A stretch of 64,000 bases of DNA, taken from Amphiscolops sp. MND2022 (taxonomy: Eukaryota). The stretch covers positions 14,384,001 to 14,448,000 of the forward strand of contig OZ076418.1 of NCBI GenBank assembly GCA_964187785.1. The letters run 5' to 3'. Each line of letters starts with the position of its first letter. Position 1 is the stretch's first letter. Shown here piece after piece: positions 19,459-50,001 of the stretch. A program made the position numbers and the translations under genes. Under the pieces are notes generated by a model, which was not told the DNA's origin, made no database searches, and saw only the letters and a list, made by a program, of their open reading frames with translations.

Positions 19459-22400
19459 TCAGGGGCAGAAACGGAACCTCGCTGACAAAGCGCGGAACAG
19501 CCAAAGTAGCAGTAGCCAATTGCAGAGTCTGATCGAAACCTCTTGATGACCCACCGGAAGGCCCAACCGGGATTGGCCCTGGAACAGCAAACTTCGAACT
19601 GGGTAGAGGAGTCTTGGGCGATTTACTAGTAGAAGAAGTGACCCGATGAGTTGGCGAAGAAGAAGTTGAACCAGAAGGTTTAGGATCAACATCCAGAGAA
19701 GTCCATGCCCTTTCTTCATTAGTAACCGTGCAGGTGAAACGGGACTCAAATTTATTCTGTAGTCGTCGTCGGTGAGATGAGCAACTGGAACTAACGTCCC
19801 AAACAGAATAATCGGGATTTTCCAGCAAACTCCTCCCTTTTCCGAGCAAAGAAAAATAGGGGCAACAGTTCTAGGATTGGAAAATAACCCTAAAACGTTG
19901 GGAATGCCGACCAGAGAAGACTGAACACTCCTAACTGCAGAAGTAAAATCACAGTTGTCAGAAGCCAAGTCAGGTAATGCAACGGTGAAAACAGGTGGAA
20001 TGCAAATAGAGCTAGAAATTCCAAGACAACACAATTTGAATACAGAGAATAAATTGGTGCGACATTGGAGCTCATAATAACCGGACATGAAGGTAACCCA
20101 GTCTGTGTCGTACTGTACTTCGCAAGACCTGAACTTCTCAACAAAAGACCGGTACTCACTCAGGATGAGTGGCTTGATGGAACTCGATATCCAGTCCCGC
20201 TGTATGAGGAAATCGCACAATTGGTCTGATTCTTCTTCGTAGTCCTCCTCTCGCCCATGTAATATCACAGCTTCGTCGAAAACAGACATTCCTCGGATAA
20301 GCTTCGACTTGCGGATGCTGTGTTCCAGGAGCAAAGTACATAGACTTTTATAAAAACACAGTGCTTGTTCGACGAAATGGGTTGGCGTCGGTAGGTCACT
20401 CTTATTGACTAAGTCGGCAAAGTCTTTATTGCGAAGAAAATCAGTGACGCTTTTGAAAGGAAGATCTGAAGACAAGTCGATAGATAAGAATCGGTCCCAG
20501 TCAGAGATGTCCCCCAAGAAGGAATCTGGCAAGATAGTCTGGAGCTGACTATACACAAATGTGGCGTAGGAGCTGTAGAGTCGGAAGCCGTCTGAGGCGA
20601 TCCCAGTGACTCCTTTGAAAGCCGATTGGTCTGAAGCAATTTTAGATTAAGAAAAGGAACCAGACATTAGAAGAATGGAAAGAATAGAAAAAGGCTAACA
20701 ATGAAGAAGCACATTCCGTACTAGAAACAACTTGGCGGGATAAGTCTTGTCTTTAAATATCGTCTCATCCAAACTTTTGGGCTGAAACATCAAAGATTGA
20801 CCATTAAAACTATGTTAGAACAACGATATCTGGAATTTCGAAAACGATAATTACCTCTTTCATGTGGTATTTGAAAGCCTTGATCCGGTCAGTGAGACGG
20901 AGATGAGCAACCACATGATGCCAATTCTGGTACAGTTTTCCAAGAAGAATAGCGCACTTGTCATAACTGTATTCGAAGCTACAGATCGCCTAAAAGAACA
21001 AATTCATGCCTGTGAGAACTAATAGCATTGGAATTGAACTTAAGACATGACGCATTATGATGTCTTCCGAGTACAGTATAGAATGCTGAACACCATACAG
21101 CATAGGATATACGGATTAACCGTGAAACCAGCATAATTCAAGAAAAACAGTAGAAAAGAATAAATCACGCTGTTTTTGGAAGAAAACAGTATAAAAGGAA
21201 TAATTACGTCGATCCGGAAAGAAACAGCATAGAAGAAAAGTTCATGCGGTTTCCGGAAAGAAACAGCATAGAAGAAAAGTTCATGCGATTTTCAAAAGAA
21301 ACAGCATAGAAGAAAAGTTCATGCGATTTTCAGAAGAAAACAGCATAGAAGAAAAGTTCATGCGGTTTTCGGAAGAAAACAGCACAAAGAAGCATCCATG
21401 CGGTCTCCGTAAAAGAGTCAGCATAGAAGACAGGTTTATGCGGTTTTGGAAGAAAACAGCATAAAAGAATACTCATGCGGTTTTCGAAAGAAAACTGCAT
21501 AAAGAAGCACCCATGCAGTTCCCGTAATGGAAGGGCATAGAAGATGTGATTATGCGGTTTTCGGAAAAGGTGGCATAAGGAAATACCCACACTGCAAACA
21601 GAATAAAAACATTTTAAAGATAAAATCTATGCAGTTTGCAGAAAACAATGACTATGCGGAGTAGCAGCATAATGAAACGAAGAAACTATGGTCAAGATCT
21701 AACAAAATATGCGGTAATATGCGGTTTTCTGAAGACGTCTTAGGAGTGTTAATTACAGCTAAAAAGGGACATAATATTGGTTAAACAATGCAAATGCTTA
21801 CTTCTCGAAGCTCCTGTAAGTTGTTGAGCCAAGCTGATCCCAAAGCTGTCCGGAGTTTCATCAAAAGAAACTGTAAAACGCTGTGTATTTCATAGCGGTC
21901 CAGGATTTTGATACATGGGCCTGCGAGCATTTTGTATAAATCTTCATAGCCGAAAGTAGCAACGATGCAAATGGGGGTGGATTGGTCCAACTCAGTAGTC
22001 CGTCCATCAAACCCGAGCAGAGAAAACACAGTTCGTGGATTACTTGTAACAGCAAGGAAAGAAGAGATGGCATCGAGGACTTTCGGAGCTGTTTGAAGAC
22101 TGTTGGGAAACTCGGAAAGGCCGAGACTATTGTACACATTCCCAGACCAGAAGGCCAAGTTGACCTGAGCAACTTTAGTCGAGGAAGTGAATTGAAGGGA
22201 ACACAAGCCTCGCTGACCAATAGATGTGGCAGAATATCGTAGTAACTCGTGAAACATGTAGACGAGTATTCCCTGTGAAACATATGAATTAAATGTATGG
22301 TAAATAGATGTCCAACTTAGTCAGATAACGAAAGATACTTACAAAAACACGTTCCTGTCTCCAGTCGTACTGCGGGAATCTAGTGGGCCCCTGATCGTCG

Positions 22401-30749: not shown

Positions 30750-31294
30750 TTTATTCAACTTCTTCTGGAGTAACAAACGTTGAGTCCAACACCATCTCCA
30801 TTCAACTTGCATTCATGATAACAATAGAACGGAAGAATGAGCGTTATTTCCGAATAATGCTGCTGATTTTGAATTCAGTGGAAACACAGCATTGAAACCA
30901 GCAGGCACCCTCCGAGTTCTCGTCCTAAGCCCTTAGGATGATTTCACTGGAAATTTATTATAACCAAACAACTGGCCTTTCCATAGAACTATTTTGAGAA
31001 TCTTCGCACCGAACATCCTTATGTTGTTAAATTGTGTTTTCTGGCCACCAGTCTAATTCGTCTAATTCGTCTAAACTTTCAGAGATTATTAGCAAAGCTG
31101 CAGGGTCAAATGTTAAATCAGGTCTGACCTTCTGTGATTTGGAGATAGTTAGGAGGTCTCAGGCAGTGAACATTGACATACAACTTATGATAAGGTTTGA
31201 ATATGAAACGAATCGCTGCAGCTCACCAAAACTTATCCAGAAATTTTTTAAGAAGCTACTCGAAATGCAGAAACGGATAACTGTAAACAGCACC

Positions 31295-31542
31295 TGTCGT
31301 GAACATTACGGTGGTTTTTGTCACCGTGTTCACTGTTGAGAGTAGTTTTAGCTTTCACGTTGTGCTGAACTTCGGAATAACTTTCCGGTCTCTCATCGGA
31401 TCTCTCCCATCCCCTTCTAGTCTCCTGTCTTGAGCCGGCCATAATAACGTCCTCTAATATATTGGTAGAGTTCCGGCCGCTATTTCCTGTCCTTCTGCGG
31501 TAGTAGTGATCCTTGTACCATCACAGGCGGCAGCCTGCGACA
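31295..31542 (-). repeat. E2 3' LTR (248 bp)
   Basis: Direct repeat of 43629-43876. Confidence 0.97.
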
Positions 31543-31921
31543 CTGCGGGTGTTAGGAAAAGTAAGCTTCCTGCGTTCAAGCCATTTTCATAAGCCTCTCG
31601 TCGTAGGGCGGTAATATAAGCGGGCTCACTGCTAGGTGTCGATCTTTGCATGTACCAGTTCACCTTTTCTGCTTTTATTTGATCTCTCGACTTGCCACAT
31701 ACCATACAGCCTGTGTGCAAATTTTGGCTCACATCCTGGTAAGGCTCGATATTTTGCACATGATAGGACGCATAGAAAGATCCAGAGGTTGACTGCGCAA
31801 GAGGGGTGTCAATGCTCGGTCCCCTTTCATGGTCGGGAGGAGACTGTGGGGACTCCAGAACGGGTAATACAGTTGCACAGAGCTCGACTTTTGATTTTCT
31901 TTGTTTTTTCGATGGAGCCAA
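31454..31921 (-). CDS. E2 ORF-X: 155-aa CxxC protein ending 89 nt inside the 3' LTR
   Basis: TGCMVCGKSRDQIKAE...RREAYENGLNAGSLLF; crosses the LTR boundary at ...CCCGCAG|TGTCGCAGG. Confidence 0.75.
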   Translation of the reverse strand: MAPSKKQRKSKVELCATVLPVLESPQSPPDHERGPSIDTPLAQSTSGSFYASYHVQNIEPYQDVSQNLHTGCMVCGKSRDQIKAEKVNWYMQRSTPSSEPAYITALRREAYENGLNAGSLLFLTPAVSQAAACDGTRITTTAEGQEIAAGTLPIY

Positions 31922-32243: not shown

Positions 32244-33293
32244 TATGAGTTTCTTAGCAATTTTGCTGATTGGGAAAGTTAACTAGCTTGAGTGAGATTT
32301 CAAAGTGGAATGAACTTACCAACTCAAAAATTTTGTCGACTCGGGCCTTTTCCCGGCAATTCGTTTTTGGCGGTCGAGTTATCGGTAAATCGCCCTGATC
32401 CGACGTGAACATTCCTGAATGGAATTTTATAATTAGTCGGCATCCTTTGATAACTCAGTGTTTACCCCCTATCAGCACCATCACTCTGAGAGGTGTTAAT
32501 GACGCTTGAGTTGTAAATATTATCTTCACCCGTTTCAAGTGGGTAATTAACAGTTTGCCTGAGAGCGATTAACGGCACGCGACGCGGATTTCTTTCAAAA
32601 TGGCTTCAGCCAATCAGCTTTAAGCTTCGATAAATTGCAAAATTAAATAATAAAAATGGCGAAAATAATAAATCCAAGTAATCCAAGTGATCCAAAAATT
32701 CTAACTAAAAGGTAACTAAGACAACTGAACGAAACGGCAAAACAAAACAGGGCAAACGACCATAACCGGCCTCAAACTAAATAAGCTGTAAATAACAAAG
32801 TTCTTTGTACACTTCGCTGGCAGACTCCATGTACAGAATAAATATGTAGATAATCCATAATATTAGTCTGGTAATAATCTTCAGCCACGAACTCCAACTC
32901 TTCAATTGTTTTACATTAAAATTCCAATCCAATTCCATTTCTGATTACTCTACATTTGTTTCTTTTATTTGTATTCATCCAACTGAGATTCATCCTTGTA
33001 CGTCCAGCTCTTCTTCCGTCAGCTCTTCTCTTTGGAATATCCCGGATCTCCTTCTTCAGCCGAACTCGGCCAAGTCCCTTATCCATTACAGCCGAACAAG
33101 GACTCATTCCCTACAATCAGTCTTGCCCCAGAATGTCTTCGTCTGAAGGTTGGTTTGTTTTATTTTTGAACTGAATCTAACTTGATCAGGGTTCAATTTG
33201 TTCACAAAATGCTTCCTGTTTCCGTCAATGATTACGTGATAACGTTTCCATTCAAATTTTCAAGCACTTCCGGAAGTTTTCTAATGCGGTGAA

Positions 33294-36200
33294 ATGGATT
33301 TCTTTCAAGGAAGCTCACCGCCAAATTTCATCTCTTTTTGTTTAGCAAATCAGCCAGGAGATGATCCTCAAGCCCAAGCCAACAATTCAGCAGATATTCC
33401 CAGCGAGCGTGTCCTGACTACTACTTCTGCAGGAGTGTCCAACGTTATCCGTAGGCCGCAACCATCGCCTCCACCCTTCCCACCAACAAGACCTCCGAGG
33501 TCGCCTGGCAGTCCTGACAGTAACGTTGACGTTACTGCGTATGCGGATGAGAAAGTTCTGTTTCTTGAACAAGCCCAGGAACAGGAAGAGGGACAAGTTG
33601 CCAAGGGTTCTGAAATCAGGGAACAGGAGATTGAAGAGAGTGCCACTGAAGGTCCGTCTGCCGCTGGGATTGAACCCCAAAATTCTACATTGTTTTTCCA
33701 AACTAGCACTCCAACCAAGAACTTGCCCAGTGAGTCTGCAGGGCTGAATTTAACACAACTAGAAGTCGGTCTAACGATTGCTCCCTCCTCTCTGACGGCA
33801 TTGCCAGAGTTGTTGACAACTTGCGGAACTTCTGCCAACGTGTCAGCAGCGTCATTCCTTCAGCATGAGACTGATGAGAGTTCCTCTGTATGTGATGCCC
33901 CCAAACTGCCAACGGGAGTCACGGATGTGATATATTTGGACGACGTGACTGGGACTGAGGAAGCCGGTGACACATCCAGCCAGGCAAGTGGGCCTGCCCT
34001 ATACAATTTCCAGCCAGTAGGAAATGTGACTGAAACTGCAGGAGAATCATCAGTTGATACTTCTATCCATCGTCCCGATATCATGCGTCCGTCAACGTCA
34101 ACGTCTGCAGGGCAAGATTCCAAAGTCAGGGAGCTCTCCGGCCGCAGCCGGGCCATTTTAAAACAGTACTTTGATGAGGATGCTACCACCATCAATTTCC
34201 CTCTCGGCCATAGAACAGTGGCTTTTACTGAGCCACAAGTATATCATCTTTTGAGAGTTCTTACTGATGAGACGTTGAAAATGTCCTATACTGCCTTGGA
34301 ACAGATGGTGATTGGGGCAGTTCGCGGAGCGCCGGTCACTTCCAGTTCCCGAACTGATCATTTCCGAGTCAGGCCAAGAGCCCAAACTCCAGGACCTGGT
34401 CTGCATAGCGATTCTGAAGACAGCTCACGCTCTGAGAATTTTCCTGAATCGGGAACCGATACGTCTGCTGGATCAAGTTCAGGGCAAGAAGACAGAGGGC
34501 TGGACTCCTGCAACGATACTGATAGTTCTGGGGAGATGGCTCTCATCTCACAGGCCTTCAAGGAGCCTTTCAGACCTGCTTCAACTTCCCGCAAAACTAC
34601 ACAAGACGATCCCTCTCAAGCAGGCTTTGAATCTGCGGAGCAGTCAAGCCTTGATGCCACTCTTTCTGAGTTGCGGACTCAAACTTCTCCCGCCCCGCCT
34701 TTGGCTTCAAGTTCGGGTAAAGCGCCCAAAAGGAAGCGACGCAAGCAGACTCGAGGTGTCCCTATGAGAGAGGAGTTCTTCTCTAAGATCGGTTGGACGC
34801 GCTCATTCATTTCCGGACCAGCAGATCCCCTTCACAATCCAAATATGGTGTGGTGCCATATATGCAAAAAGAATATCTCCGTGAAAACTAAGGGGACTTT
34901 AGAAATCTTGCGACACCACAGGACTGAGAAGCACCTCCGACGGGATCAAAGATGGCGCTACGAGCACCTTAAAAGCGTCCACTCCGTGTCTGGAAAAGTG
35001 CAACAACGAGTGAGAGGCCGTAATGGGAAGATCCTTTCAGAGATAGAGTTGGCAAAGGAGATGCGCCACTTCATGCACGTCGAGCTGGTGGACATCGGAG
35101 AACGCTTCCCTTTTTATGATGATTTCATAAAAGGTACGTCAACCACACTTGTCACCCCTGAATCAAGAGCCAAGACGCAGATCCATCTCATCGGGAACTT
35201 CGTACAACAACTTGGAGATATTGGAATGCTCCGCAAATTGTGGTCCCAAATAGGCTCTTTGACCAATTACCAGATCAGCTACTGCGACTTCGATTGGGGC
35301 GAGGAAAGAATTTCGGTAAGTTCTCTTTTGAGTTTGCGTACTGCTTGAGGGAGGCTAAAGCCCTCCACACATTTCGTAATCCTCCTTTTCCTTTCCAGGC
35401 CATCTTCCAGCACATTTTCAATTGTGCAATGAATGATTTAGCGGAGCAGATTGCTACCACACAGCACTTTGCCATCGAGTTTGAGGATGAGGGCGTGAAC
35501 AGACTCAAGTCTGTCAAATTCTGGAAGGGCGACACTCTCTGTCGAATCTACGTGTGCCGGAGTGGGCTTCCTTCCTCTGATCTCACTGGGGAGCTAGGGT
35601 CTCTTTCCCGACTTCTCTCAGTAGTGTCCACCAAGGCCGATATAGTTGCTTGCTCAGGATGTCCAGTGGAGCTGATCCAGACTATCGACCATAATGCTTT
35701 CTTCCCTCGGGCTGTCCAGAGTTGCTTTCGCTTCGAGCACCTGCAGCTCCCGAAGATGATGCACAAGCCAACTTACAGTGTGTTTGGCAGAATAGACTTC
35801 TTCTCTGTTCTGAAATGCCTCACGGTTTCACTTGGAGCAGCTACTGGCGAGGACTGGGTCCTGCAATCCCCTGAGCTAGCACAAGTTAGTATATTAAGTT
35901 CAAACATAAGGCGCAAAGGGTCAGGGGGTAGGTACGGGCAAAAGACAATTTGGGTTCATTTAGGCCATTGATACCTGCAAACTGGACTTGCCGAGTTTAC
36001 CCAACCTCTGCCGGGAACTCGTAAAACATTGGAAGGCAGTCAGGCAGTACTTGACATCACACACTCCACATCAAGGAATGCAGGGCGTCCACAATCAAGT
36101 GCAGAGTTTCGAGTGGTCTCTCATCTGCGACTCTTTCTTCGTCGTCAAGTTGGAACTCTTCCAACGCATAATCAGTGATTGTGAGTATAACGCTACATGT

Positions 36201-37496
36201 CCATATCGATACTTTAAGGCATTATCTGGACGGTCCTTGATCCTTGATTCTTTGGGCTACTAGCATAGTAGGCATATTGTCATGGGTTCACGTGAACATT
36301 TTGTTCCTTTCATGATCTTGTCCGTTGTATTTCCAGATGTTTCCAGTTTCGTTGTCAATCTGCAAGGCCGACGAGATGCGTCATTTTTCCTCTGTGGAGA
36401 AGTCTGTCGTTTCGTCTCCAAGCTATGCGCCAGATGCTACTTGCCAGAAACCATCCCTCTCGAGAATTCGTGGTTCCTTCTCCTTAATTTCGACGTGAGC
36501 GAAGGAAAGTTCATCAGTGAGGAAGATTTCCTTATCCGGCACCGATTGACAAATCGGATAGCTACTGCCAGCAAACAGTGTGCTGATGTTGTTCATCTGA
36601 ACAAAAAATCCGAGAAGGCCGCCATTGATAGGACAGCTGCAGAAACAACTAGCAGTTTTATCAAAGAGGGACTGCACTTCATTCAGTACCTGATCAAGCA
36701 GGTCCTCAACCAAGCCGGCCTGAGTTCCGAGGTGATCAAGTGGTTGGCCGCCTTTGACCCTTTTGTCCTTTTCAAGAGGCCGACTGAGGTCGGACTCCGG
36801 CATTTTGAGGTGCTACACTCGACCTTTCAGCTTCGTTCTTGGGTCTCCAGTGAGAATGAGAACATCTGTCGAGATGAGTATTTGGCTTTGTTGGATCACC
36901 TGCGAGTCAATTATCCTCCAGATTTTGATTTCAAGGAAAATTCCAGTGACCTCATAGACTTCCTGATGCGGCTCGAGTTTTTTCAAACTCATGAGCTCAT
37001 TTTCCATCTCTTCAAGCTGTGCTGCTTGTGTTTGACAGGTCAAAGTCCCCAATATCCTCCAGTATCTTTTGGGAGTGTTGACACTTCTGGACACCGACGC
37101 CGTTTTGCTGACCTGGTAGTGCCCTGTCAGAGTTACCTTTCTTGCGTGCCTGATTCCATTTCGTATTGTTGCTCTGATGCCAATTTAGAAAAGTTCTCAG
37201 CTCTCAGTTCTTCCTTCGAGCGTTCCGCTTTCTCCCCTGATTACGATCCATGGACCTTTGTGGATGAGTTCGGTAGGTCCAAGATCTACAAGAGCCTTCT
37301 TGCCTCCTATAAGGCCGTCACTGCTGTTTCCCCCACTCGGGCTGTTCGTCTGGGGAAAGGAACTGCCTCTTCCGTGCCGGATGACTCTGCCGTAAAGTTT
37401 CCTTCCCGGACCCAACGGAAAAGAATGGGCAGCAGTAGTTCCACTATCTCGTCCGCCTCCAAGAAACTTGTCCATTGTTATATTTTCCTCCTCTAG
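33294..37496 (+). CDS. E2 antisense cargo gene: four exons, open ~1294-aa BED-finger / hAT-transposase-like protein
   Basis: Exons 33294-35315, 35399-35884, 35964-36180 and 36337-37496 (3885 nt = 1295 codons). Introns GTAAGT..CAG, GTTAGT..TAG and GTGAGT..CAG, phases 0,0,1; the third removes the in-frame TAG at 36261. VWCHIC...HHRTEKH finger; FKLCCL; DYDPW. Confidence 0.82.
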
Positions 37497-40400
37497 GGCT
37501 CAGGCTTTCATTTCTAGCATCGTTTTCAGATATTTCGGGCACGATAATATCATCCCCCCTATTTGGAGAATTTTGTGTATAGTTTTCATTCGTCAAGTTT
37601 CTTTCTGAAAAATTTTCATCGTCTTCCGGTCTATCGGCCGTATTCGGCAATGATTTTTCTTGGTTTTTTGGGGAAACGGCCGGATTCGGCCAGTCAGAAT
37701 CTTCATTTTCTGTGATTGCAGTAGATTCATTTCTTTCAGTGACGTCATCGCTTAAGTGGTCATTCCGGCTGTGCGCTGCATTGCCGTTGTTCGTTACTTC
37801 TCGCGTGATTATGTAATCCGCTTCATTCTCGGTTACGTCATTTGTATTCGTTTCTGCCGGATTCGGCCGTTCGCCATTCGGCGTGCTAGTCGGAATAGTC
37901 TCGCTTCCTCGTGTAACTAGCTGTTCGCCAAAGTCGGTTTCCCACGTTATGATATATAAATCATCTTGCGGAATGACGATTTCTTCATCTGGCTGTAACC
38001 GTTGTTCTCGGAAATTGTCTTCAAGCGGTTGATTGGGGACAAACTTCTTAAGGCAAATCCGATGTAAAATTTGAATTTTGTTTGTGTTGATGCGTCGTAC
38101 TATATAGTTTTCATTTGGCAAAACTTTTTGGACTACAAATGGTCCAACCCAACGGTAATCGCGGAAGGGAATTTTTGATCCTTGATTATCCGCTTTCGGC
38201 TGTAGGACAAAACAGTATTCGTTCTCCTTTAGTGGAGCGGCTTTTGCTTTGCGGTCATAATATTCTTTGTACTTGATATACGACTGCATATTGTTTTGCT
38301 TCGTTTTCTCAATCAGGATTTTTGTCCGGTTTTGGATTTCTTCAGCAAATTCGGTTGTGGGGTTGATCTGCTCGTTTGGATTATTTCTAAGCTTGTGATC
38401 CAGTATATTGAATGGAATTCTTCCGTGAAATACTCTCGTCGGTTCACAACCGATGCTGGCGTGATAACTAGTATTATGATTCAGTACTGCTAATGGCAAG
38501 TATTTGTGCCATTGTCGGCGATATTCCCCACATGCCATTTTGAGATTTGTTTTCAATGAGGCATGAGTTCGCTCCAATTTCCCAATTGTCTGCGGGTGTT
38601 TTGTCGTTGCACATTTGAGTGTGATGCCCGAAATCTGCGTAACCTCCGCAATAATTGTAGAAGTAAATGCAGTACCTTTATCAGTGATAAGAGTCGTTGG
38701 TAGATATGAGTGTTTAGTCATGATGTCAATGAGCGCTTTTGCTACATTGATCGCTGATGCGTCCGTAAGGGGATAGGCGAACAAATATCTGGAGAATACA
38801 TCAATTGCCGTTAGGACATTTTCATATCCTCCACTTGGGGGAAGGTTCGGCAATAGGTCGATTTGCATGGCGTCTTCAGGTCCAAGGTCCCATTCGGGCA
38901 AGTTGAGCAGTTCAGCTGTGATCGTTGCGTTAGGGACTCTTTTGTCTCTGGCACATTGTTCGCACCCTTCTACCCACTTTTTGACGTGTTTAGCCATGCT
39001 AGGGTAGTAATACTTCTGTCTAATTTCCTGCAACATTTTTGAAATCCCAGGATGTTTATGCGCTGTCCCGTGGAGAGACTTAAGCAGTTCCTGAAGTAAA
39101 TGTTGTGGGAGCAGAATTTGATGGTATTTAACGTTCCCTGTTTCATCAAAGTATTGCCTTGTCAGGATTTCGTCTTTTAGTACAATTCGTTCCAGATTAT
39201 TTGCATAGTGTCTGTATCGGGCATCCTGTTGCAGTATGTTTTCTGAATAATCTTCATGAAGGAGTTTTGCCTTCAATTGTTGTAATATTGCATCTTTGGA
39301 TTGCTCAATAATGATCTGGTTCGTTTTCCTCAATCGGACTTGTATGTCGGGGTGTTGCTTGACCTGGTTTGTTGACAGAGTTTGTATAGTAACAGTGGGC
39401 TCATCAGTTGCTGGGTTTTTCCTGATTGCTTTTTTTTGCCCAAAACTGTTCTTCTGTCTCGTCGTCGTCATTGGTGTAGAAGATTTGTTCTTCTTGTGAC
39501 ACCCCTGCGGATTGGACATTGATTTCGATTGGTAGTGTTTGTACGTCTTCACGAATTTTCATCACCAATTTGTCCTTCGGATCTGCTTCCAATCGGGACA
39601 AATAGTCGGCAGCTGTATTTTGTGCCCCTGGGATGTGCGCTATGACAAAATTGAACTGAATGACATAATCACACGCGTTCCACAGGGCTGGGGGTATTCT
39701 TTTTGTTTGGAAAAATCTCGTGACAGCTTTGTTGTCCGTAAGGATGATGACCGGTTTCGGCGCACCCCAGAAGATATGTCCGAATTCTTTGAATGCAAAA
39801 TAAATTGCAAGGAATTCCTTGGCATAAATTGACATCTTGATCTGTGCTGGGGTGAAGGTTTTTGATCCATATGCGACCGGTGCATACGATTTTCTGAGTG
39901 ACGTAAATTTCTGGCTTGGGTCGTCTTCGATTAGGACCGCGTATCCGGCTGCACCAAAACTTGCATCAGTCATTAGTGCTATTTGCTTGTTCGGAATGGG
40001 TTGCTGTAGGGCCAAGTCGCAACATTTGTCTAGTGCTCTGTTGATTTCTTCGAATTGTTGGACTAATTCTTTCGATACTAGGACCTTTTCGTCACTTTTG
40101 AGCATCTTGTAGAATGGAGCAAGGCGTTCGGAGAGTCTTGGGACATAATTCCTGTAGTAGTTTAGGAATCCCAAATATCGCTGTAAAGCCTTTTTCGACT
40201 TCGGGAATTTGGTCTTTTCCAGAAAGTTTTGCACATTCTGTTTCTGGGGTTTGACGCCTTGTGGGGTAATAGTCCGTCCGAGAAAATCACTTTCTTTTGC
40301 ACCGAAGTGACATTTGTGCATTGTTAAGTTAAGGCCTGCTTCCTGGATGCATTTGAACGTAGCTCTCAGGTTCGTCATGAGGTGGTCAACATCGTTGGCT

Positions 40401-42637
40401 GCGATGCCGATATCGTCCACATACTGGGCACACAGATCCGCTTTAATGACTTTGTTAAGGTATTCTCTCATGAAACTCGAGAATGCGGATAGTGACCGGC
40501 TAAGGCCTTGTGCTAAACGTCTGTAAGCGAATGTGCGACTGGCAAAATTGAAAGCCAACATTTCGATTGAACGTTGGTCTGCCATTGGTAGACAGTGGTA
40601 TGCCTGCGAACAGTCTAATTTGCAGAACAGTTTTTTGCCTGCCAAGTGTTGGGCAGCATCAACTAGTGTGCTGACGGGGTGATTATTGTTGATGTAATCA
40701 TCCGAGATGAGGTTGTTGATTTTTCTCAAGTCAACCAAGAGTCGGAGTTTCCCATTCGGCTTCTTTTGTGCGAATATTGGACTTGTGTATTTCGAAAATG
40801 GCAGTGTAGTTATTATGCCATATTTGTGTAACATGGCTAATTCGACTAGGATGTCCTCCTTCAGATTGATAGGAGCTGGGAGGCTTTGACTATAGGCTGG
40901 GGAATCGTCCTTAGGCGTTAGTTTCACCTTGAATTCCTCGTTCATGCCTATATCAAATCGGTGTCGTGCAAAGATGTCATGGAATTCCACTAACAATTCC
41001 TCAATTTTCTCCTTCTCTTCAGGAGTAAGGGTGGAATCCTTCCAGTCAAAGTTTTCTAAGAATTTCGCACGCGATTCTGCATCTGTAGTGGGGTCGAGTG
41101 TTTCCAGGTCTTGTAAGGCCTGTAACTCGCGTAGGATTCGTTTTCGTATAGGTGTGTGTTCCTCAGGGTTTCCAGGGTTTTCTGGAGTTGGGAACCAATA
41201 ATTTTCGGAGTTTTGTGGATTTCTATTGGTCTTGATGAGACTGCTGACATAATGGGCTGCTTGCTCCTGGTCATTCTGCAAAAGGTGCCAGGTTGATGCC
41301 GGGTCTATCGGTTTGACATACTTCATCTGTTCTGGCGTCATGACAGAGAAATTGGCAATATGTAGTCCCTTTTTGAGTTTATAAGGGTGGTCTGTGAAAT
41401 TGTTCACTGGTATCAATATATTGCCGTCATTCAGAGTGACCAAAGCTGGGCAAAATGTGATGTCGCCTTCCTCATGTAGAAGGTCGCTCGGTTGCAAAAT
41501 TCCAGTGACAGCATTCTCAGGGTAGAGTAGGGAATTGGTCCTAATTAGGACTTTATCATTTGGTGGAATTGTTATCTCAATAGGGTTGAGAATTGGTTCT
41601 AATACATTTGAATACTTATGGTCAGCCGTTTTGAGCTGCATTGAAAAGAACGGGGAATTCAGTATCCCTTGTCTCATGTCCAGCACTGTATGGTTTCTTT
41701 GAAGGAACCTTAGTCCAATGATCGGTCCTGTCAAATGTTCCATTACTATAAAGATTTCATGGAACTCAATGTCACCAACTTCGAATTTGAGCTCTATGGT
41801 ACTTTTAGGAGTTTCCAGTTGCCCATTAGCGACCATGATTTGGAAGTTCGGAGGCGGACCTTCTCGGATAACAGATTGTGGAGATAGAAGGCGGATTTTC
41901 CGGAGGTCCATTTCAGGGATTGCACTGGACAGTGCTCCAGTGTCTATTAATCCATCAATGGTCAATTCCCCAAAGTCCATTGGGAAATAAAGCATGCGTT
42001 TCTTGCATTTGAGGTTGATGTTGGCTGACAGGGGTATACAGTCTGGTTCACCTTCTCTGGTGATGAGTACGTTCTGGAATTGTTTTTCGTCTAGTAATGA
42101 TTGTAGCGTGATTTCACCACTGTTTTCAGGATTCTCGGTCCCCAGTGGGTTTGGGAACACTGGATGGTTTGTGCCATCATTCATTTGCCAGTTTTCAATT
42201 AGCGCTCGTGTTTTTTTGTTATGGGTAATTGGAGGGTTCTCGTGGATTGTTCTATTATAATAGTCAATATCGTCCAGGACATATTGAAATTGCAGTGAAT
42301 CTTGGTTGTAAAGCTCGGTGTCCCAATAGGGATCTCTGCCGTAGTCTGGATCGATGTATGTTGGATTGTAATCATCGATTAGGGGAATGGGCCTGAAGCG
42401 GGTGGTGAAGGTAGTGGTGTAATCAGGGTCCCAAACAGGAATTGGTTTCTGGAATAAATGGGTGTTATTGTAGGTGATGATGGTAGCTTTTTCCATCTGC
42501 TGCTGCCAGACAACAGAGGGATAGCCCATCAATTGCTGATTGTATTGGTGGAAGGTTTGCGTTGGAGGATCCGATCTGATGTATTGTCGGACAGATATTA
42601 ATTCGTTATATTGGAGTCGTGGCGAAGTTAGTTTTTT
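37444..42637 (-). CDS. pol: E2 Pol (protease, RT, RNase H, integrase) with one frameshift near 39430
   Basis: LIDTGA, YVDD, LMTDAS...LTDNKA, HHCC finger, QIDLLP...ITDKGTAF...KLERTH. ORFs 39404-42532 and 37444-39552 change frame at a T8 run. Confidence 0.95.
42628..42637 (-). promoter_or_regulatory. Gag-pol -1 frameshift site A AAA AAC followed by the gag stop
   Basis: Heptamer in gag frame; the -1 frame is open for 35 codons into the pol ORF at 42532. Confidence 0.82.
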
Positions 42638-43776
42638 GACTCATCATTAGGATATGAGGATTGGGAGCTCGATGATGTCGGTTTGGTCTGAGGTTTCTGA
42701 GCCTTTGGATTGGGCTTATTTTCAGTTGAGTCATCAGGTCTAGTGCGTTTGGGTTTAAGATGTGCACCAGCACCTTGCCAACATCGTTCTTCCGGGTGGT
42801 TCTTTTTGCCACAAGTGCCACACTCCGGGTATGTTTTCTTCTGCGTCGACTTGCCTTGTTGGGCATCTTTCTCTTTTTTCTTTTTCAGTTTTTCGCAGTC
42901 TTTGACCATGTGGCCTTTTTCCTTGCAGTAATTGCAAGTAATGTCTGACATTTGCCCAGTGGACAGAGGAGTTTTAGATTTTGTAGTCGAGGAGGTCATT
43001 GTGGCCATTGGTAGGTCATCTGATTCCTCAAGGGCATTGAGTTCCAACTCTCTCTCCAAATGAGCAACAATTTCATCATATGAGCCATTTTCTAATCTGG
43101 CCATGTTGACAGACCGCTTCAACTCAGGTGGCAGCTTTGCGTAGAGCAAGCTGTCAATCATTTTCTGTGCATGATCGCCAAACGCCTTCTCGGCTTCCTG
43201 GTTCAATTCTTCGAGAAAATCAGGCAGCTTCATCGTATTGGGATCGAAGACTAGACGATGCCATTTATATTTGGCAGTCGCCTGTGACTCGGGCTTGACG
43301 TATTTTCGTCTAAAGATGACTAATACGTCCTCTAGAGTTTGTCGGTTGCTTGAGCTGATATTTCTGAACGTCTGAAGAGCATTCTTCCTCAATAAAGAGT
43401 GGAAGTGATTGATGTTCATTTGCTCAGTCATTTCTGGCTGCATCTTGATCATAGTGTGAAATAGGTCTTCGAACAGTTCGAATTTCTCACTTTTGCCATC
43501 GAATGTCATCGTATTTGAGTTGACTGGGCGTATGGTGAGTTGTTGGGCTGTCGGTCTATTCTGCATTGTAGTTAAGACGTCTGCCAGTATCTTCGGATGC
43601 GTGGGTTCGAATCCCACTCCTGTCAGCATGTCGTGAACATTACGGTGGTTTTCGTCACCGTGTTCACTGTTGAGAGTAGTTTTAGCTTTCACGTTGTGCT
43701 GAACTTCGGAATAATTTTCCGGTCTCTCATCGGATCTCTCCCATCCCCTTCTAGTCTCCTGTCTTGAGCCGGCCAT
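42628..43776 (-). CDS. gag: E2 Gag (382 aa) with two CCHC knuckles; ATG inside the 5' LTR
   Basis: FELFEDLFHTMIKMQP, CNYCKEKGHMVKDC, CGTCGKKNHPEERC. Confidence 0.95.
   Translation of the reverse strand: MAGSRQETRRGWERSDERPENYSEVQHNVKAKTTLNSEHGDENHRNVHDMLTGVGFEPTHPKILADVLTTMQNRPTAQQLTIRPVNSNTMTFDGKSEKFELFEDLFHTMIKMQPEMTEQMNINHFHSLLRKNALQTFRNISSSNRQTLEDVLVIFRRKYVKPESQATAKYKWHRLVFDPNTMKLPDFLEELNQEAEKAFGDHAQKMIDSLLYAKLPPELKRSVNMARLENGSYDEIVAHLERELELNALEESDDLPMATMTSSTTKSKTPLSTGQMSDITCNYCKEKGHMVKDCEKLKKKKEKDAQQGKSTQKKTYPECGTCGKKNHPEERCWQGAGAHLKPKRTRPDDSTENKPNPKAQKPQTKPTSSSSQSSYPNDESKN
43584..43628 (-). other. E2 extended primer-binding site: 45-nt complement of a tRNA-Leu 3' half
   Basis: + strand reads CCAGT ATCTTCGGAT GCGTGGGTTCGAATCCCAC TCCTGTCA GCA = long variable arm, T arm, acceptor strand and CCA with one mismatch. 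Confidence 0.85.
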
Positions 43777-43876
43777 AATAACGTCCTCTAATATATTGGT
43801 AGAGTTCCGGCCGCTATTTCCTGTCCTTCTGCGGTAGTAGTGATCCTTGTACCATCACAGGCGGCAGCCTGCGACA
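43629..43876 (-). repeat. E2 5' LTR (248 bp)
   Basis: Direct repeat of 31295-31542; PBS on the inner side and TSD on the outer side. Confidence 0.97.
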
Positions 43877-43929
43877 GCACCCTACATTGACCATTTTTCC
43901 ACAACACTGGAAAAGTAGCATTTCGTCCA

Positions 43930-44130
43930 TTGGTCCCACCTGAGATTACTGAAACATTATTCAAGACATGGCATTACGACCGCATGCATGGACACGCTGG
44001 TGCTTTAAAAATATTAACTGAACTCCGTAAAAAGTTTTCCACCCCTAGCTTAGCCATAGATGTTCATTTTGTTACTAACTGCCAAACATGTCTCAAAGCA
44101 AAACCTGATAAAATATTCCACGGGTACAAA
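43930..44130 (+). pseudogene. Integrase HHCC zinc-binding fragment of an older retroelement (copy A)
   Basis: VPPEITETLFKTWH...HGHAG..K...LRKKF...DVHFVTNCQTCLKAK. Confidence 0.75.
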
Positions 44131-44515
44131 AATTATCATAGAAAGAACGGTTTTAAAAACACCACAACGTTTTCAAATAGCAAAAATTACACCGATGCCT
44201 GGCCTCAAATACTTATAAATAATTATTTAACTTTGAAAAGCATCCATTTTCCTAACTTCGATAATAAGACAGATGTCACGTCGTTTCGAAGTCAAGACTT
44301 CATTATTAGTTTGCTGACATTTGGAGATAACATCATTAGTATTTAATCTCATTGGTGTCACTTTAGAATCTCATTACTGTCACTTTGGAATAATTAGAAC
44401 TATATTTAATCCCTGTAATCATTGATAGAATTGCTGATGATATATACGCAGAAGAAAGAGAAATTGGATTCGGATCTTTTGAATAGTCTTCTTTGAAGAG
44501 AAACTAGAAAAACCT

Positions 44516-46231
44516 TGTTACGACTTGCGTTCGTGTCGTTGTTTTGGGTAGAATTAATTCTAACTGATTTTGTAGGAGTGTAGAAACTCCTCGTTCCATT
44601 CTCTGTTTCTTCTTCGAAATTTTCTCTTACGTTCTCTCATGTTTCATGTTTGAGAAGTCTTAGCGTTTCTCTTTGAGACTCTACAAGGAGATTCTTAATC
44701 TCAGAAGAAATTTCCTCTTTCAAAGAAGCTCTTAGGTTTTCTAAGAGGCTACCTTCAATTCTGGGTGATTTCGGTTTAGATGGTCCCGCCACACTCGAGT
44801 CTTGACACGAAGGACAAGAGTTTTCCAGTATAACTGGTGAAACAAAACCTTCATTTACGCTTTCAATAGCGTCTTGCAGGTTGTTTCTTCTCTTTTGGCT
44901 CCTTGTGTTAGACATTTTGATGGAGAAACATTTGGTTCGAATGAATTCAATTTATCATCTGAGTATTTTTCAACAAAGTTGAAGAGTACTGAATTGAGGA
45001 AAATGAGAAAGTTATAAAGTAACTGATTTTCACAATTGGAAAAGACTGAGTCCCTTAATCAACAAAATGCTTCATATTTATACCCTCCTAGCATCATTTG
45101 ATCACGAGTAAAATCCTTAATTCCCTCGAACATATAATCAATTCATGTTTTTTGGTAAAAAAAGACATTATGATCCCAAATTCGCGTCGACATTCCGTCA
45201 AATTTTGGGACACGGCAATTTTTACCTAGTATTAATCATCAACCATGATCATATCATTTCATCCCGGCGTCCTTTTGCTTCCTCCCAAGCAGGAAGTAGA
45301 CATTACTTCAGTCTGTCAAACCGGAAATAGTTCCCTGTTTTACTGCTTTGGTTCGTAGGAAAATTGACGCTGAGATGACACTGACGTGAAGAACTAATAC
45401 CTGATATTGAATTTCAGCTTGAAGAAAAATGTGACTACTTTTCAAACTTTGATTATTTAAGCGATGCTGGGACAATATTTTTAACGGATTTGGACTCACT
45501 CCTGGCGTTGGAAACAAAATCAAATTCGCAATCTCGAATACATAGATTACCAACAGTCTTGGCTTGACGCGACAAGTGCGACAAGTTTACAAAATAACTT
45601 CAACAGTAACAAGGCACTTCAAGTGTAACGTTATGATATTAATGCACTTCAGTGTTAATAATCATATTTATGAAATAGCCCTTAATGTCATACAAAAATG
45701 AGCTGGTACAAATTAACAAATAGCAAATCTAAATTTGACAACGCCGTTGATGTGCAAAAATATTTCATGTAAAAAAACGTAGCTGCTTATTTAGCAACAA
45801 GAATATAAACTGTGACTCTCATTTCCAGAAAATGCCAAAAAGTCTCATTTAAATCGCTTCCTATTGTAATTTCAGGTGAACAACCATTTGGTTGACGAAA
45901 AGTGGACGGAATTTGCTCAATCTTACTCCTTTTAATTGAAACTGTAATCAGAACAAACGTTTCCTTCATATTAATCTCGTTAAAATGGGTGTTCATTTTA
46001 CCATCCTGGAAAAGTTAAAGCAGCTTATTTTGATAGATTTTTGACGTTATATTAGCGTATTTTCCTTAACTTAACTGAGCGAGTTTATCTAAATAATTTA
46101 ATTTCATAATTTTGTCAATGTCATGTTGACGAGTTGTCGTGGCAGAACTGAGATTTTGACTAGTTTGACGCAATGCTGACGAGTATTTTATAAATGAGTT
46201 TCTAACTAGCTGCCGGAGTCGTGACGTCACA
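44516..46231 (-). repeat. ~1.7-kb LTR remnant related to E0, encoding a Gag-like N-terminal peptide (copy A)
   Basis: Ends ...GTCGTAACA as in E0 but without a PBS; starts TGTGACGTC; LRASLKEEISSEIKNLLVESQRE resembles E0 IKASLRKEILSDLSKILAENQKE. No matching TSD. Confidence 0.6.
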
Positions 46232-46932
46232 CTGGCGGTAAATTGTAATGATTTCTAGTGAAGCCGTTAATATAGGCGGATAATCGGAGTGGTTTCTGGT
46301 ATGCATGGACGACGAGGCAGTGACGTCAATTGGTATACCTTCAGAACTTGTCTGCGTCTCACTGACGACAAATATACCTGTATTCTTATTTCTTCTGCCG
46401 CCTTGTTTACTTGATGCAATATTGTCGTCCCCAACCACACTAATTGCCGTTCGAAGTGCTATTAAGCTGTCTTTCTTAGAAAAGGCTCAATTTCCTCTGC
46501 GTGCTATCTCAATGTATTTTCTATTTTAGTTCTGATTGATGTTCTTTTTGGAGACGAATTTGAATATGTTTTAATTTAGAACAATTTTGAGAATCTCGCA
46601 CCGAACATCCTTTTGTTGTTAAATTGTGTTTCTGGCCACCAGTCTTAATCGTCTAATTCGTCAAACTTTCAGAGATTATTAGCAAAGCTGCAGGGTCAAA
46701 TATTAAATCAGGTCTGACCTTCGGTGATTTGGAGATAGCTAGGAGGTCTCAGGCAGTGAACATTGACATACAACTTATGATAAGGTTTGAATATGAAACG
46801 AATCGCTGCAGCTCACCAAAAATGTTCCAGAATTTTCTTTAGAAGCTACTCGAAATGCAGAAACGGATAACTGTAAACAGCACCCTTCATTGACCATTTT
46901 TCCACAACACTGGAAAAGTAGCATTTCGTACA

Positions 46933-47130
46933 TTGGTCCCACCTGAGATTACTGAAACATTATTCAAGACATGGCATTACGACCGCATGCATGGACACGC
47001 TGGTGCTTTGAAAATATTAACTGAACTCCGTAAAAAGTTTTCCACCTCTAGCTTAGCTATAGAAGTACATTTTGTTACTAACTGCCAAACATGTCTCAAA
47101 GCAAAACCTGATAAAATAATCCACGGGTAC
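46933..47130 (+). pseudogene. Integrase HHCC fragment (copy B)
   Basis: Duplicate of 43930-44130. Confidence 0.75.
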
Positions 47131-47617
47131 AGAAATTATCATAGAAAGAACGGTTTTAAAAACACCACAACGTTTTCAAATACCAAAAATTACACCGATG
47201 CAGGACCGTTAGCAACGTTCACTAAATTGGATGGTTGAAAATAGCGGACAGCGATCAAGGGGAAATATCCTACAATTTCCGCTGTATGATGCCATGATAA
47301 CTGGCCTCAAATACTTACAAATAATTATTTAACTTTGAAAAGCACCCATTTTTCTAACTTCGATAATAAGACAGATGTCACGTCGTTTCGAAGTTAAGAC
47401 TTCATTAATGGTTTGCTGACATTTGGAGATAACATCATTAGTATTTAATCTTATTGGTGTCACTTTAGAATCTCATCACTGTCACTTTGGAATAATTAGA
47501 ACTATATTTAATCCCTGTAATCATTGATAGAATTGCTGATGATATATACCCAGAAGAAAGAGAAATTGGATTCGGATCTTTTGAATAGTCTTCTTTGAAG
47601 AGAAACTAGAAAAACCT

Positions 47618-49319
47618 TGTTACGACTTGCGTTCGTGTCGTTGTTTTGGGTAGAATTAATTCTAACTGATTTTGTAGGAGTGTAGAAACCCCTCGTTTCA
47701 TTCTCTGTTTCTTCTTCGACATTTTCTCTTACGTTCTCTCATATTTCATGTTTGAGAAGTCTTAGCGTTTCTCTTTGAGACTCTACAAGGAGATTCTTAA
47801 TCTCAGAAGTAATTTCCTCTTTCAAAGAAGCTCTTAGGTTTTCTAAGAGGCTACCTTCAATTCTGGGTGATTTCGGTTTAGATGGTCCCGCCACACTCGA
47901 GTCTTGACACGAAGGACAAGAGTTTTCCAGTATAACTGGTGAAACAAAACCTTCACTTACGCTTTCAATAGCGTCTTGCTGGTTGTTTCTTCTCTTTTGG
48001 CTCCTTGTGTTAGACATTTTGATGGAGAAACATTTGGTTCGAATGAATTCAATTTATCATCTGCGTATTTTTCAACAAAGTTGAAGAGTACTGAATTGAG
48101 GAAAATGAACAAGTTATGGAGTAACTGATTTTCACAATAGGAAAAGACTGAGTCCCTTAATCAACAAAATGCTTCATATTTTTTTTCCTCCTAGCATCAA
48201 TTGATCACGAGTAAAATTCCTAAATTCCCTCAAACAATTAGTCATTTCCTGTTTTTTGGTAAAAAAATCATTATGATCCCAAATTCGCGTCGACATTTCG
48301 TCAAATGTTGAGACACGGCAATTTTTACCTAGTATTAATCATCAACCATGGAATGATCAAATCATTTCATTCCGGCGTCCTTTTGCTTCCTCCCAAGCAG
48401 GAAGTAGATATTATTTCAGTCTGTCAAACCGGAAATAGTTCCCTGTTTTACTGCTTTGGTTCGTAGGAAAATTGACGCTGAGATGACGCTGACGTGAACA
48501 ACTAATACCTGATTTTGAATTTCAACTTGAAGAAAAATATGACTAATTTTCAAACGATGATTATTTGAACGATGCTAGGACAATGTTTCTATTGGATTTG
48601 GACTTACTCCTTGCGTTGGAAATAGAATCAAATTCGCAATCTCGAATACATAGATTACCAACAATCTTGGCTTGACGCGACAAGTGCGACAAGTTCACAA
48701 AATAACTTCAACAGTAACAAGGCACTTCAAGTGTAACGTAATGATATTAATGCACTTCAGTGTTAATAATCATATTTATGAAATAGCCCTCAATGTCATA
48801 CAAAAATGAGCTGGTACAAATTAACAAATAGCAAATCTAAATTCGACAACGCCGTTGATGTGCAAAAATATTTCATGTAATAAAACGTAGCTGCTAATTT
48901 AGCAACAAGAATATAATCTGTGACTCTCATTACCAGAAAATACCGAAAAGTCTCCTTTAAATCGCTTCCTATTGTAATTTCAGGTGAACAACCATTTGGT
49001 TGACGAAAAGTGGACGGAATTTGCTCAATCTTACTCCTTTTAATTGAAACTGTAATCAGAACAAACGTTTCCTTCATATTAATCTCGTTAAAATGGGTGT
49101 TCATTTTACTATCCTGGAAAAGTTAAAGCAGCTTATTTTGATAGATTTTTGACGTTATATTAGCGTATTTTCCTTAACTTAACTGAGCGAGTTTATCTAA
49201 ATCATTTAATTTCATAAACTTGTCAACGTCATGAACTGAGATTTTCACTAGTTTGACGCAATGCTGACGAGTACTTTATAAATGAGTTTCTAACTAGCTG
49301 CCGGAGTCGTGACGTTACA
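47618..49319 (-). repeat. ~1.7-kb LTR remnant (copy B)
   Basis: Duplicate of 44516-46231; termini TGTAACGTC...GTCGTAACA. Confidence 0.6.
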
Positions 49320-50001
49320 CTGGCGGTGAATTGGAATGATTTCTAGTAAGGCCGCTAATATAGGCGGATAATCGGAATGGTTTTTTGGTATGCGTGGACG
49401 AGCCAGTGACGTCAATTGGTATACCTTCACTTACTGACGTCGTCTTACTGACGACAAATATACATGTATTCTTATTTCTTCTGCCGCTTTGTTAACTTGA
49501 CGCAATATTGTTGTCCTAAACCACACTAGTTGCCATTCAAAGTGCTACTAAGCTGTCTTTCATAGTAAAGGCTAAATTTCCTCGGCGTGCTATCTCAATG
49601 TATTTTCTATTTAAGATTTTGATTGATGTTCTTTTTGGAGACGATTTTGAACATTTTCTAATATAGAACAATTTACGATTTCTTTGTTCTAAGGCAAGTT
49701 TTAATTTAGTTTTCAGGTGGCAAATGTTTCTATTTTGACGTGGCAAACTCGTCTTACCGGAAATGCGTGAAAAATCATTTTAGTTCATTTTTTTCTATTT
49801 TCATTCCCATTTGAGATTTGCGCACTACAGACGTGTATTTTGCATTCTTTAGTCACAGTTTTTTTTGGTGTTAAGTTTAGAGTTTGAGTTAATATCCAAA
49901 ATACCTTTTCGTGAGTTTCGCTGTACAGCTGTGCCCACGCCTATATCCGACTCTCATGCATCCGCAATCCAGTTCGGGAACGGACTGTGACAGGGCAACT
50001 G

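Follow-up and report, generated by a model that had tools for sequence, protein, structure and literature searches.

The window, a 64,000-nt stretch of the Amphiscolops sp. MND2022 genome, contains a minus-strand Ty3/gypsy LTR retrotransposon (Metaviridae) whose features are collected in Table 1. Its LTR pair has the TG...CA ends and the 5-bp target-site duplication expected of this type of element. Pfam matches above cut-off were obtained for RVT_1, RT_RNaseH, Integrase_H2C2 and rve, with protease and zf-CCHC below cut-off, and the closest PDB matches to its reverse transcriptase (RT) are the Ty3 and foamy-virus enzymes (E ~1e-28). The copy is damaged at several points. Approximately 1.7 kb have been lost from both LTRs, with a deletion junction that a genome search located only in the two LTRs of this element, and ~295 nt of pol are missing near 37477, at the integrase end. 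No polypurine tract was found before the 3' LTR (31543-31560) in this copy or in the sibling that was checked; its lack is a family trait. Because the lost part of the LTR held all four TATA-like words of the family LTR, the integrase is truncated and pol is split, the window copy appears unlikely to be transcribed or to have left daughters, and it was likely dead on arrival.

Table 1. Features of the retrotransposon and of its tRNA-derived stretch (window coordinates)
Feature	Position	Strand	Remarks
Antisense copy of the 3' part of tRNA-Leu(CAG), 44 nt	43585..43628	-	tRNA positions ~41-76; adjoins 5' LTR
Normal 12-nt family primer binding site (PBS)	43617..43628	-	exact 12-nt match in 26/29 siblings
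tRNA-only 28 nt standing in for 154 nt of gag	43589..43616	-	net loss 126 nt = 42 codons
Microhomology, 4 nt, overlap of tRNA copy and gag	43585..43588	-	sibling position +167 from PBS start
Supposed D-arm remnant (gag sequence)	43568..43579	+	within sibling gag anchor (<=3 mismatches, 29/29)
5' LTR, 248 bp	43629..43876	-	first ~92 + last ~159 nt of the 1939-bp family LTR, joined at 43785-43787
3' LTR, identical internal deletion	31295..31542	-	2 differences/248 bp vs 5' LTR
Target-site duplication, 5 bp	43877..43881	+	other copy 31290-31294
gag frame, 408 codons stop to stop, CCHC knuckle	42628..43854	-	42 codons shorter at PBS than siblings
pol: protease, RT, RNase H, integrase (Ty3/gypsy order)	37444..42640	-	split over two frames

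Directly after the 5' LTR, the siblings of this element carry a PBS of 12 nt to tRNA-Leu, including its CCA. In the window copy, positions 43585-43625 of the plus strand are identical (41/41) to the 41 nt at the 3' end of host tRNA-Leu(CAG) genes (loci L003, L005 and L013) and are followed by GCA at the site of the mature CCA, which gives 44 nt in total (43585-43628). ARAGORN detected four tRNA-Leu (three CAG, one AAG) among 17 scanned host loci and no tRNA gene in the window. The initial annotation had described a 45-nt tRNA-Leu 3' half; the stretch is indeed a real tRNA copy, matched over far more than 18 nt by a host leucine tRNA, and its length is 44 nt, position 43584 being a mismatch. 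The identity covers the acceptor strand, the T arm and the long variable arm, as had been proposed, and the variable-arm stem folds as 5 bp around UUCG. The supposed D-arm remnant further on is ordinary gag, located inside a 25-nt anchor of 29/29 siblings that have no long tRNA stretch. A 22-mer from the tRNA stretch matched the window once with up to three mismatches, versus no match in 100 shuffles, and Rfam returned only a T-arm match to tmRNA (E 0.0065, below gathering) and one chance match for the window. The two other elements in the window have the short PBSs noted earlier, of 11 nt (13046, plus strand) and 13 nt (9469, minus strand).

Siblings were sought with a DNA query composed of LTR, PBS and 5' gag, and 40 of 3,685 candidates were scored. 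All 39 other scored copies are without the tRNA-only stretch, their match starting at query position 289-290, and many of them also match part of the LTR end. The 29 fetched siblings (98-99% identity in gag) have a PBS of 12 nt in 26 cases and 10 nt in one, with one change at or beside the PBS in two; none exceeds 12 nt (0/29). At the site of the 28 tRNA nucleotides of the window copy, these siblings contain gag sequence of 154 nt, shortened by 10 nt in one of them, and the junction between tRNA and gag occurs a single time in the 1.07-Gb genome with up to two mismatches allowed. The long match is confined to the window copy, and the earlier proposal that a read-through had become fixed in the family is contradicted by the siblings, by the 39 scored copies and by the unique junction. 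On the same counts, the stretch is neither a family-wide extended PBS nor an element-encoded tRNA. The extended pairing boxes of Ty1, as well as the C. elegans element Cer7, also have complementarity to the primer tRNA beyond the core PBS, which is family-wide in those systems, whereas it is found in one broken copy here. The lentivirus primer over-extension sequence, as described in PMC13191261, likewise pairs with the primer beyond the core PBS and is again a family-wide feature, in contrast to the window copy.

The genome contains at least 4,926 short-PBS sites, and among the first 100 of these, one reaches 18 nt and none is longer. Matches of at least 17 nt to a tRNA plus CCA were found at 142 genomic places, from which 128 distinct places were fetched, six scattered places and the larger part of one tandem array being left out. 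The fetched places comprise 98 that end at 17-19 nt (15, 60 and 23, respectively), 25 long ones and five tRNA genes with encoded CCA. Thirty of the 98 short stops have a different LTR end type and look like native 18-nt PBS families; several of the other 68 map as short-PBS families that had mis-jumped into gag or pol or had returned to the LTR. When duplicates (L120 and the second arm of L163) were merged, the five tRNA genes removed, and the window copy and two further finds added, 26 independent over-reads of at least 25 nt were obtained, each with different downstream sequence. Read-through of the primer beyond 18 nt, as the initial annotation had inferred, is supported by the 44-nt copy and by 25 other independent events with the same anatomy. 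In the window copy this anatomy consists of a tRNA copy that starts at the LTR end, 28 nt that replace 154 nt, and a 4-nt overlap at the point of rejoining, this 4-mer being the earliest occurrence downstream of the PBS. The resumption point could be mapped in 8/26 events, with microhomology of 2-7 nt in five and filler of 2-13 nt in three, and a short-PBS relative was found among the fetched loci for 12/26.

The lengths of the 26 events are 25, 27, 40, 42 (three events), 43 (four), 44 (three), 45, 47 (seven), 48 (two), 54, 57 and 101 nt. Ends at 47-48 nt account for 9/26 (p=8e-8 vs a uniform distribution over 25-85) and only three events are longer than 48 nt. A length of 47 nt, seen in 7/26, corresponds to an end at tRNA position 38, one base before G37. 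A further 12/26 have lengths of 40-45 nt, a range without an expected blocking modification, and microhomology use or trimming may lie behind these ends. The ends near 47 nt might also be produced by run-off at a tRNA 3' half cut in the anticodon loop instead of a stop at m1G37, a reading that would alter the cause of this second stop only and that we regard as unlikely. The seven ends exactly at position 38, which belong to the anticodon-loop region, and the mere three events that extend further would fit such a cut. However, anticodon-loop cleavage usually falls at positions 33-36, where 0/26 events end, and the unspliced precursor copied at L199 (see below) was read straight through this region. 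Moreover, HIV-1 products are described as stopping one base before the modified purine 37 on an intact tRNA (PMC13191261), and arrest of AMV RT by m1G37 is described in PMC8062790.

Errors as well as stops of RT at m1A and m1G are described in PMC8062790. Among 23 unbiased events, the base opposite A58 is wrong in ten (8 A and 2 G, in cDNA sense), versus 12 of 637 comparison positions, namely the later positions of the same over-reads (Fisher p=1.5e-10). The window copy, L211 and L213 were left out of this test, as the search had selected for non-A58 or they had no TGG start. A58 is present at 739 genomic places and another base at only 12, one of them a tRNA gene and 11 adjoining LTR ends; therefore, variants of the tRNA genes do not explain the A58 errors. 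Both modifications are predicted for the host tRNA-Leu, as the genome carries TRM61-family (PF08704) and TRM5/TYW2-family (PF02475) genes above cut-off, where PF02475 also covers TYW2. Loss of the A58 methyltransferase was considered as a cause and rejected, since a TRM61-family gene is present. The hypomodified primer of the initial annotation is not needed for the class, given the A58 errors in 10/23 events, the TRM61-family gene and the stop at 18 nt of most copies of at least 17 nt, while the window copy itself, with the correct base (T, 43610) opposite A58, could have been made from a primer with or without the modification.

Other marks indicate that RNA was the template for the class. 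The over-read class has CCA although tRNA genes L003, L005, L007, L012 and L013 do not encode it, and at L008 the over-read runs across the intron site of the CAA tRNA as in the spliced molecule. At L199:1501-1601, the LTR end is followed by 101 nt of an unspliced, CCA-bearing pre-tRNA-Leu(CAA) with 0 mismatches, after which the element resumes near the integrase end. Because no other of the 142 CCA-bearing places shows this intron, the CCA of L199 was likely added to an unspliced precursor, which suggests priming by a tRNA precursor. The AAG isoacceptor fits five events.

The tRNA-Leu genes occur in tandem arrays, an intron-containing CAA type on C8 (~35.59-35.67 Mb) and a CAG/AAG type on C11 (~6.11-6.13 Mb; L015-L030, L180, L181). 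The C11 array has ~220-bp spacing and encodes CCA in 5/52 copies, and the C8 array likely supplies most of the 739 A58 places.

Several further arrangements were observed among the fetched loci. At L163 (~4919-5000), head-to-head LTR ends are joined by fold-back of a 47-nt tRNA copy, with an A58 error common to both arms. The tRNA copy at L093:1501-1550 omits ~12 nt at A58 and continues to position 38, resembling an RT jump at a modified base. In one family (L125, L127, L137, L188 and L208), the sequence returns to the LTR end after a tRNA copy of 17-19 nt, a jump that duplicates the PBS by 33-39 nt, in frame. Another family (L111 and G000:C1:20408643-20408704) has post-PBS sequence similar to the T arm of a second tRNA read in antisense, and this stretch is possibly an extended pairing site.

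The tRNA stretch of the window copy lies in frame inside the predicted gag frame, as the initial annotation had stated. The first Met of this frame is at 43776, inside the LTR, and the M of 'MLTGV' lies within the frame, 49 codons downstream; since the frame opens within the LTR, every family member has its PBS inside coding sequence. The antisense of tRNA-Leu is stop-free in the gag frame on its own, and the open frame therefore needs no selection. Of five mapped landings in gag, three are in frame (the window copy, L159 and L200) and two, with distant references, are out of frame (L009 and L144), which is compatible with chance; nothing points to selection. Selection for the frame was thus rejected as unsupported, the open gag frame of the window copy is likely due to chance, and the claim that the tRNA sequence had turned into coding sequence lacks support. 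The complete form of this claim, in which the product of reading through a hypomodified primer went to fixation in the family and today codes for functional residues of Gag, is extremely improbable. It could draw on the open frame, on the correct base opposite A58 in the window copy and on L199, where an immature tRNA was copied nearly to its end. However, 0/29 siblings carry the stretch and the junction is unique, the copy that does carry it is damaged (42 Gag codons and ~1.7 kb of each LTR are gone, and pol is split), and both the stop-free tRNA antisense and the landings compatible with chance deprive the frame of its weight.

Taken alone, the window copy has no mark of splicing, CCA or A58 error and does not end at 47 nt. 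Its GCA is the 3' flank in 46/52 tRNA-Leu gene copies of the C11 array; it could have arisen by a point mutation, from an incompletely trimmed precursor or through DNA repair templated by a gene. The last of these would imply that, for the window copy only, a DNA break at the PBS after insertion was repaired from a tRNA-Leu gene template, thereby importing the GCA flank. This explanation is very unlikely, although the 44 nt match the C11-array genes and their first three flank bases in full (44/44), the copy has no A58 error, and the G-to-C change at this PBS position is rare: GCA-type PBSs make up 8 of 100 variant sites examined (104 found), the rarest of three types, versus at least 4,926 normal sites. 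Contrarily, the match ends exactly at the LTR end, as it does in the CCA-bearing events, the 25 other events have a like anatomy and several of them show the RNA-only features of splicing, CCA and A58 errors, and the deletion common to both LTRs points to faulty reverse transcription. A partly trimmed precursor primer or one point mutation would explain GCA equally well. An excess of GCA-type PBSs was also considered as a sign of precursor priming and was rejected, as the 8 of 100 variants represent no such excess.

We therefore favor with considerable confidence the reading in which the 44-nt stretch is a copy of host tRNA-Leu made by plus-strand over-read past the usual stop, followed by a transfer to gag through 4 nt of shared sequence. 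In this scheme, the first plus-strand strong-stop DNA would copy the primer tRNA, usually to m1A58 (18 nt), and synthesis would sometimes continue to m1G37 (47 nt). The tRNA tail of such a product, at least 6 nt of which would be unmatched to a 12-nt PBS, would normally be discarded, as for Ty3. Rarely, the tail could prime on short homology further down the minus strand, and the product, once integrated, would combine a deletion with inserted tRNA sequence; the window copy would be one example. The 1.7-kb deletion common to both LTRs probably arose by faulty minus-strand transfer in the same or the immediately preceding round.

Comparable products have been obtained in retroviral systems. With spleen necrosis virus vectors, Pulsinelli and Temin (1991) reportedly recovered 'deletion with insertion' mutants at the PBS, in which faulty termination or transfer of plus-strand strong-stop DNA is said to have left large deletions with non-viral inserts. 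Those mutants likewise combine faulty termination or transfer with a deletion and an insert, but they came from single-round vector experiments. During HIV-1 plus-strand synthesis, a main stop at m1A58, a lesser stop at the modified position 37 and copying of unmodified tRNA to its 5' end have been described, and the long plus-strand strong-stop products are reported to be unable to serve as templates (PMC13191261; PMC8599865). The HIV-1 products P1-P5 described there fall into the same three classes as the genomic events (18 nt, position 37 and full tRNA). However, they were generated in vitro or in cell culture (PMC13191261; PMC8599865), whereas the events in this genome involve rescue by mis-jump and germ-line integration in a Ty3/gypsy host, with A58 errors kept.

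For Ty3, the first plus-strand product is described as copying the tRNA and as a dead end (PMC5371799), and the PBS is therefore described as strictly inherited from the element, in Ty3 as in Ty1 (PMC5371799; PMC7472051). The family examined here resembles these elements in its short, unchanged PBS (12 nt in 26/29 siblings) and in its Ty3/gypsy domain order, but the tRNA-copying product of Ty3 is given as 12 nt (PMC5371799; PMC7472051), whereas here it ranges from 18 to 101 nt and is sometimes integrated.

The chemistry of over-reading is already known, and the window copy is an ordinary broken copy of an informative class of replication fossils. Most of what is known about plus-strand stops on primer tRNA comes from retroviruses studied in vitro or in cultured cells, and the tRNA-copying product of Ty1 and Ty3 is regarded as a dead end. 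In this genome, at least 26 such products have entered the germ line by integration, and as a set they still show the wrong base opposite A58 and the stop before G37. A report of genomic retrotransposon copies that keep A58 errors or G37 stops was not found in a search at title and abstract level, in which subscription and older literature were thinly covered. We hypothesize that large LTR-rich genomes are, with good probability, a fossil record of tRNA chemistry, in which rescued products of short-PBS Ty3/gypsy elements keep m1A58 misincorporations, m1G37 stops, the use of isoacceptors (CAG, AAG and CAA) and priming by unspliced CCA-bearing precursors, and in which elements can also gain a longer PBS or a long tRNA copy through the mis-jump. 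Should this hold more widely, genome assemblies could reveal which tRNA positions are modified and which primer is chosen in animals without tRNA data, and the mis-jump would explain how long tRNA copies come to lie beside LTRs. When genomes are annotated, a lone long PBS is best checked against sibling copies before being called an adaptation.

The surroundings of the tRNA stretch offered some additional observations. An older tandem duplication of ~3 kb (window 43874-49615) houses the element in its first unit. The element contains three long frames antisense to gag-pol on the plus strand (33285-35348, 35162-35971 and 36264-37496; 687, 269 and 409 codons), with equal lengths in one sibling and partly so in another, and no Pfam match was obtained for these three frames. 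The ~410-aa product resembles hAT-dimerisation/FAM200 clusters by language-model features (0.91-0.93, with a weak recognition score), and a BED-like Cys/His motif was seen by eye in the 687-aa product; the frames are possibly transposase-derived cargo. A comparable antisense frame (19459-20646) is present in the element at 11.3-27.2 kb.
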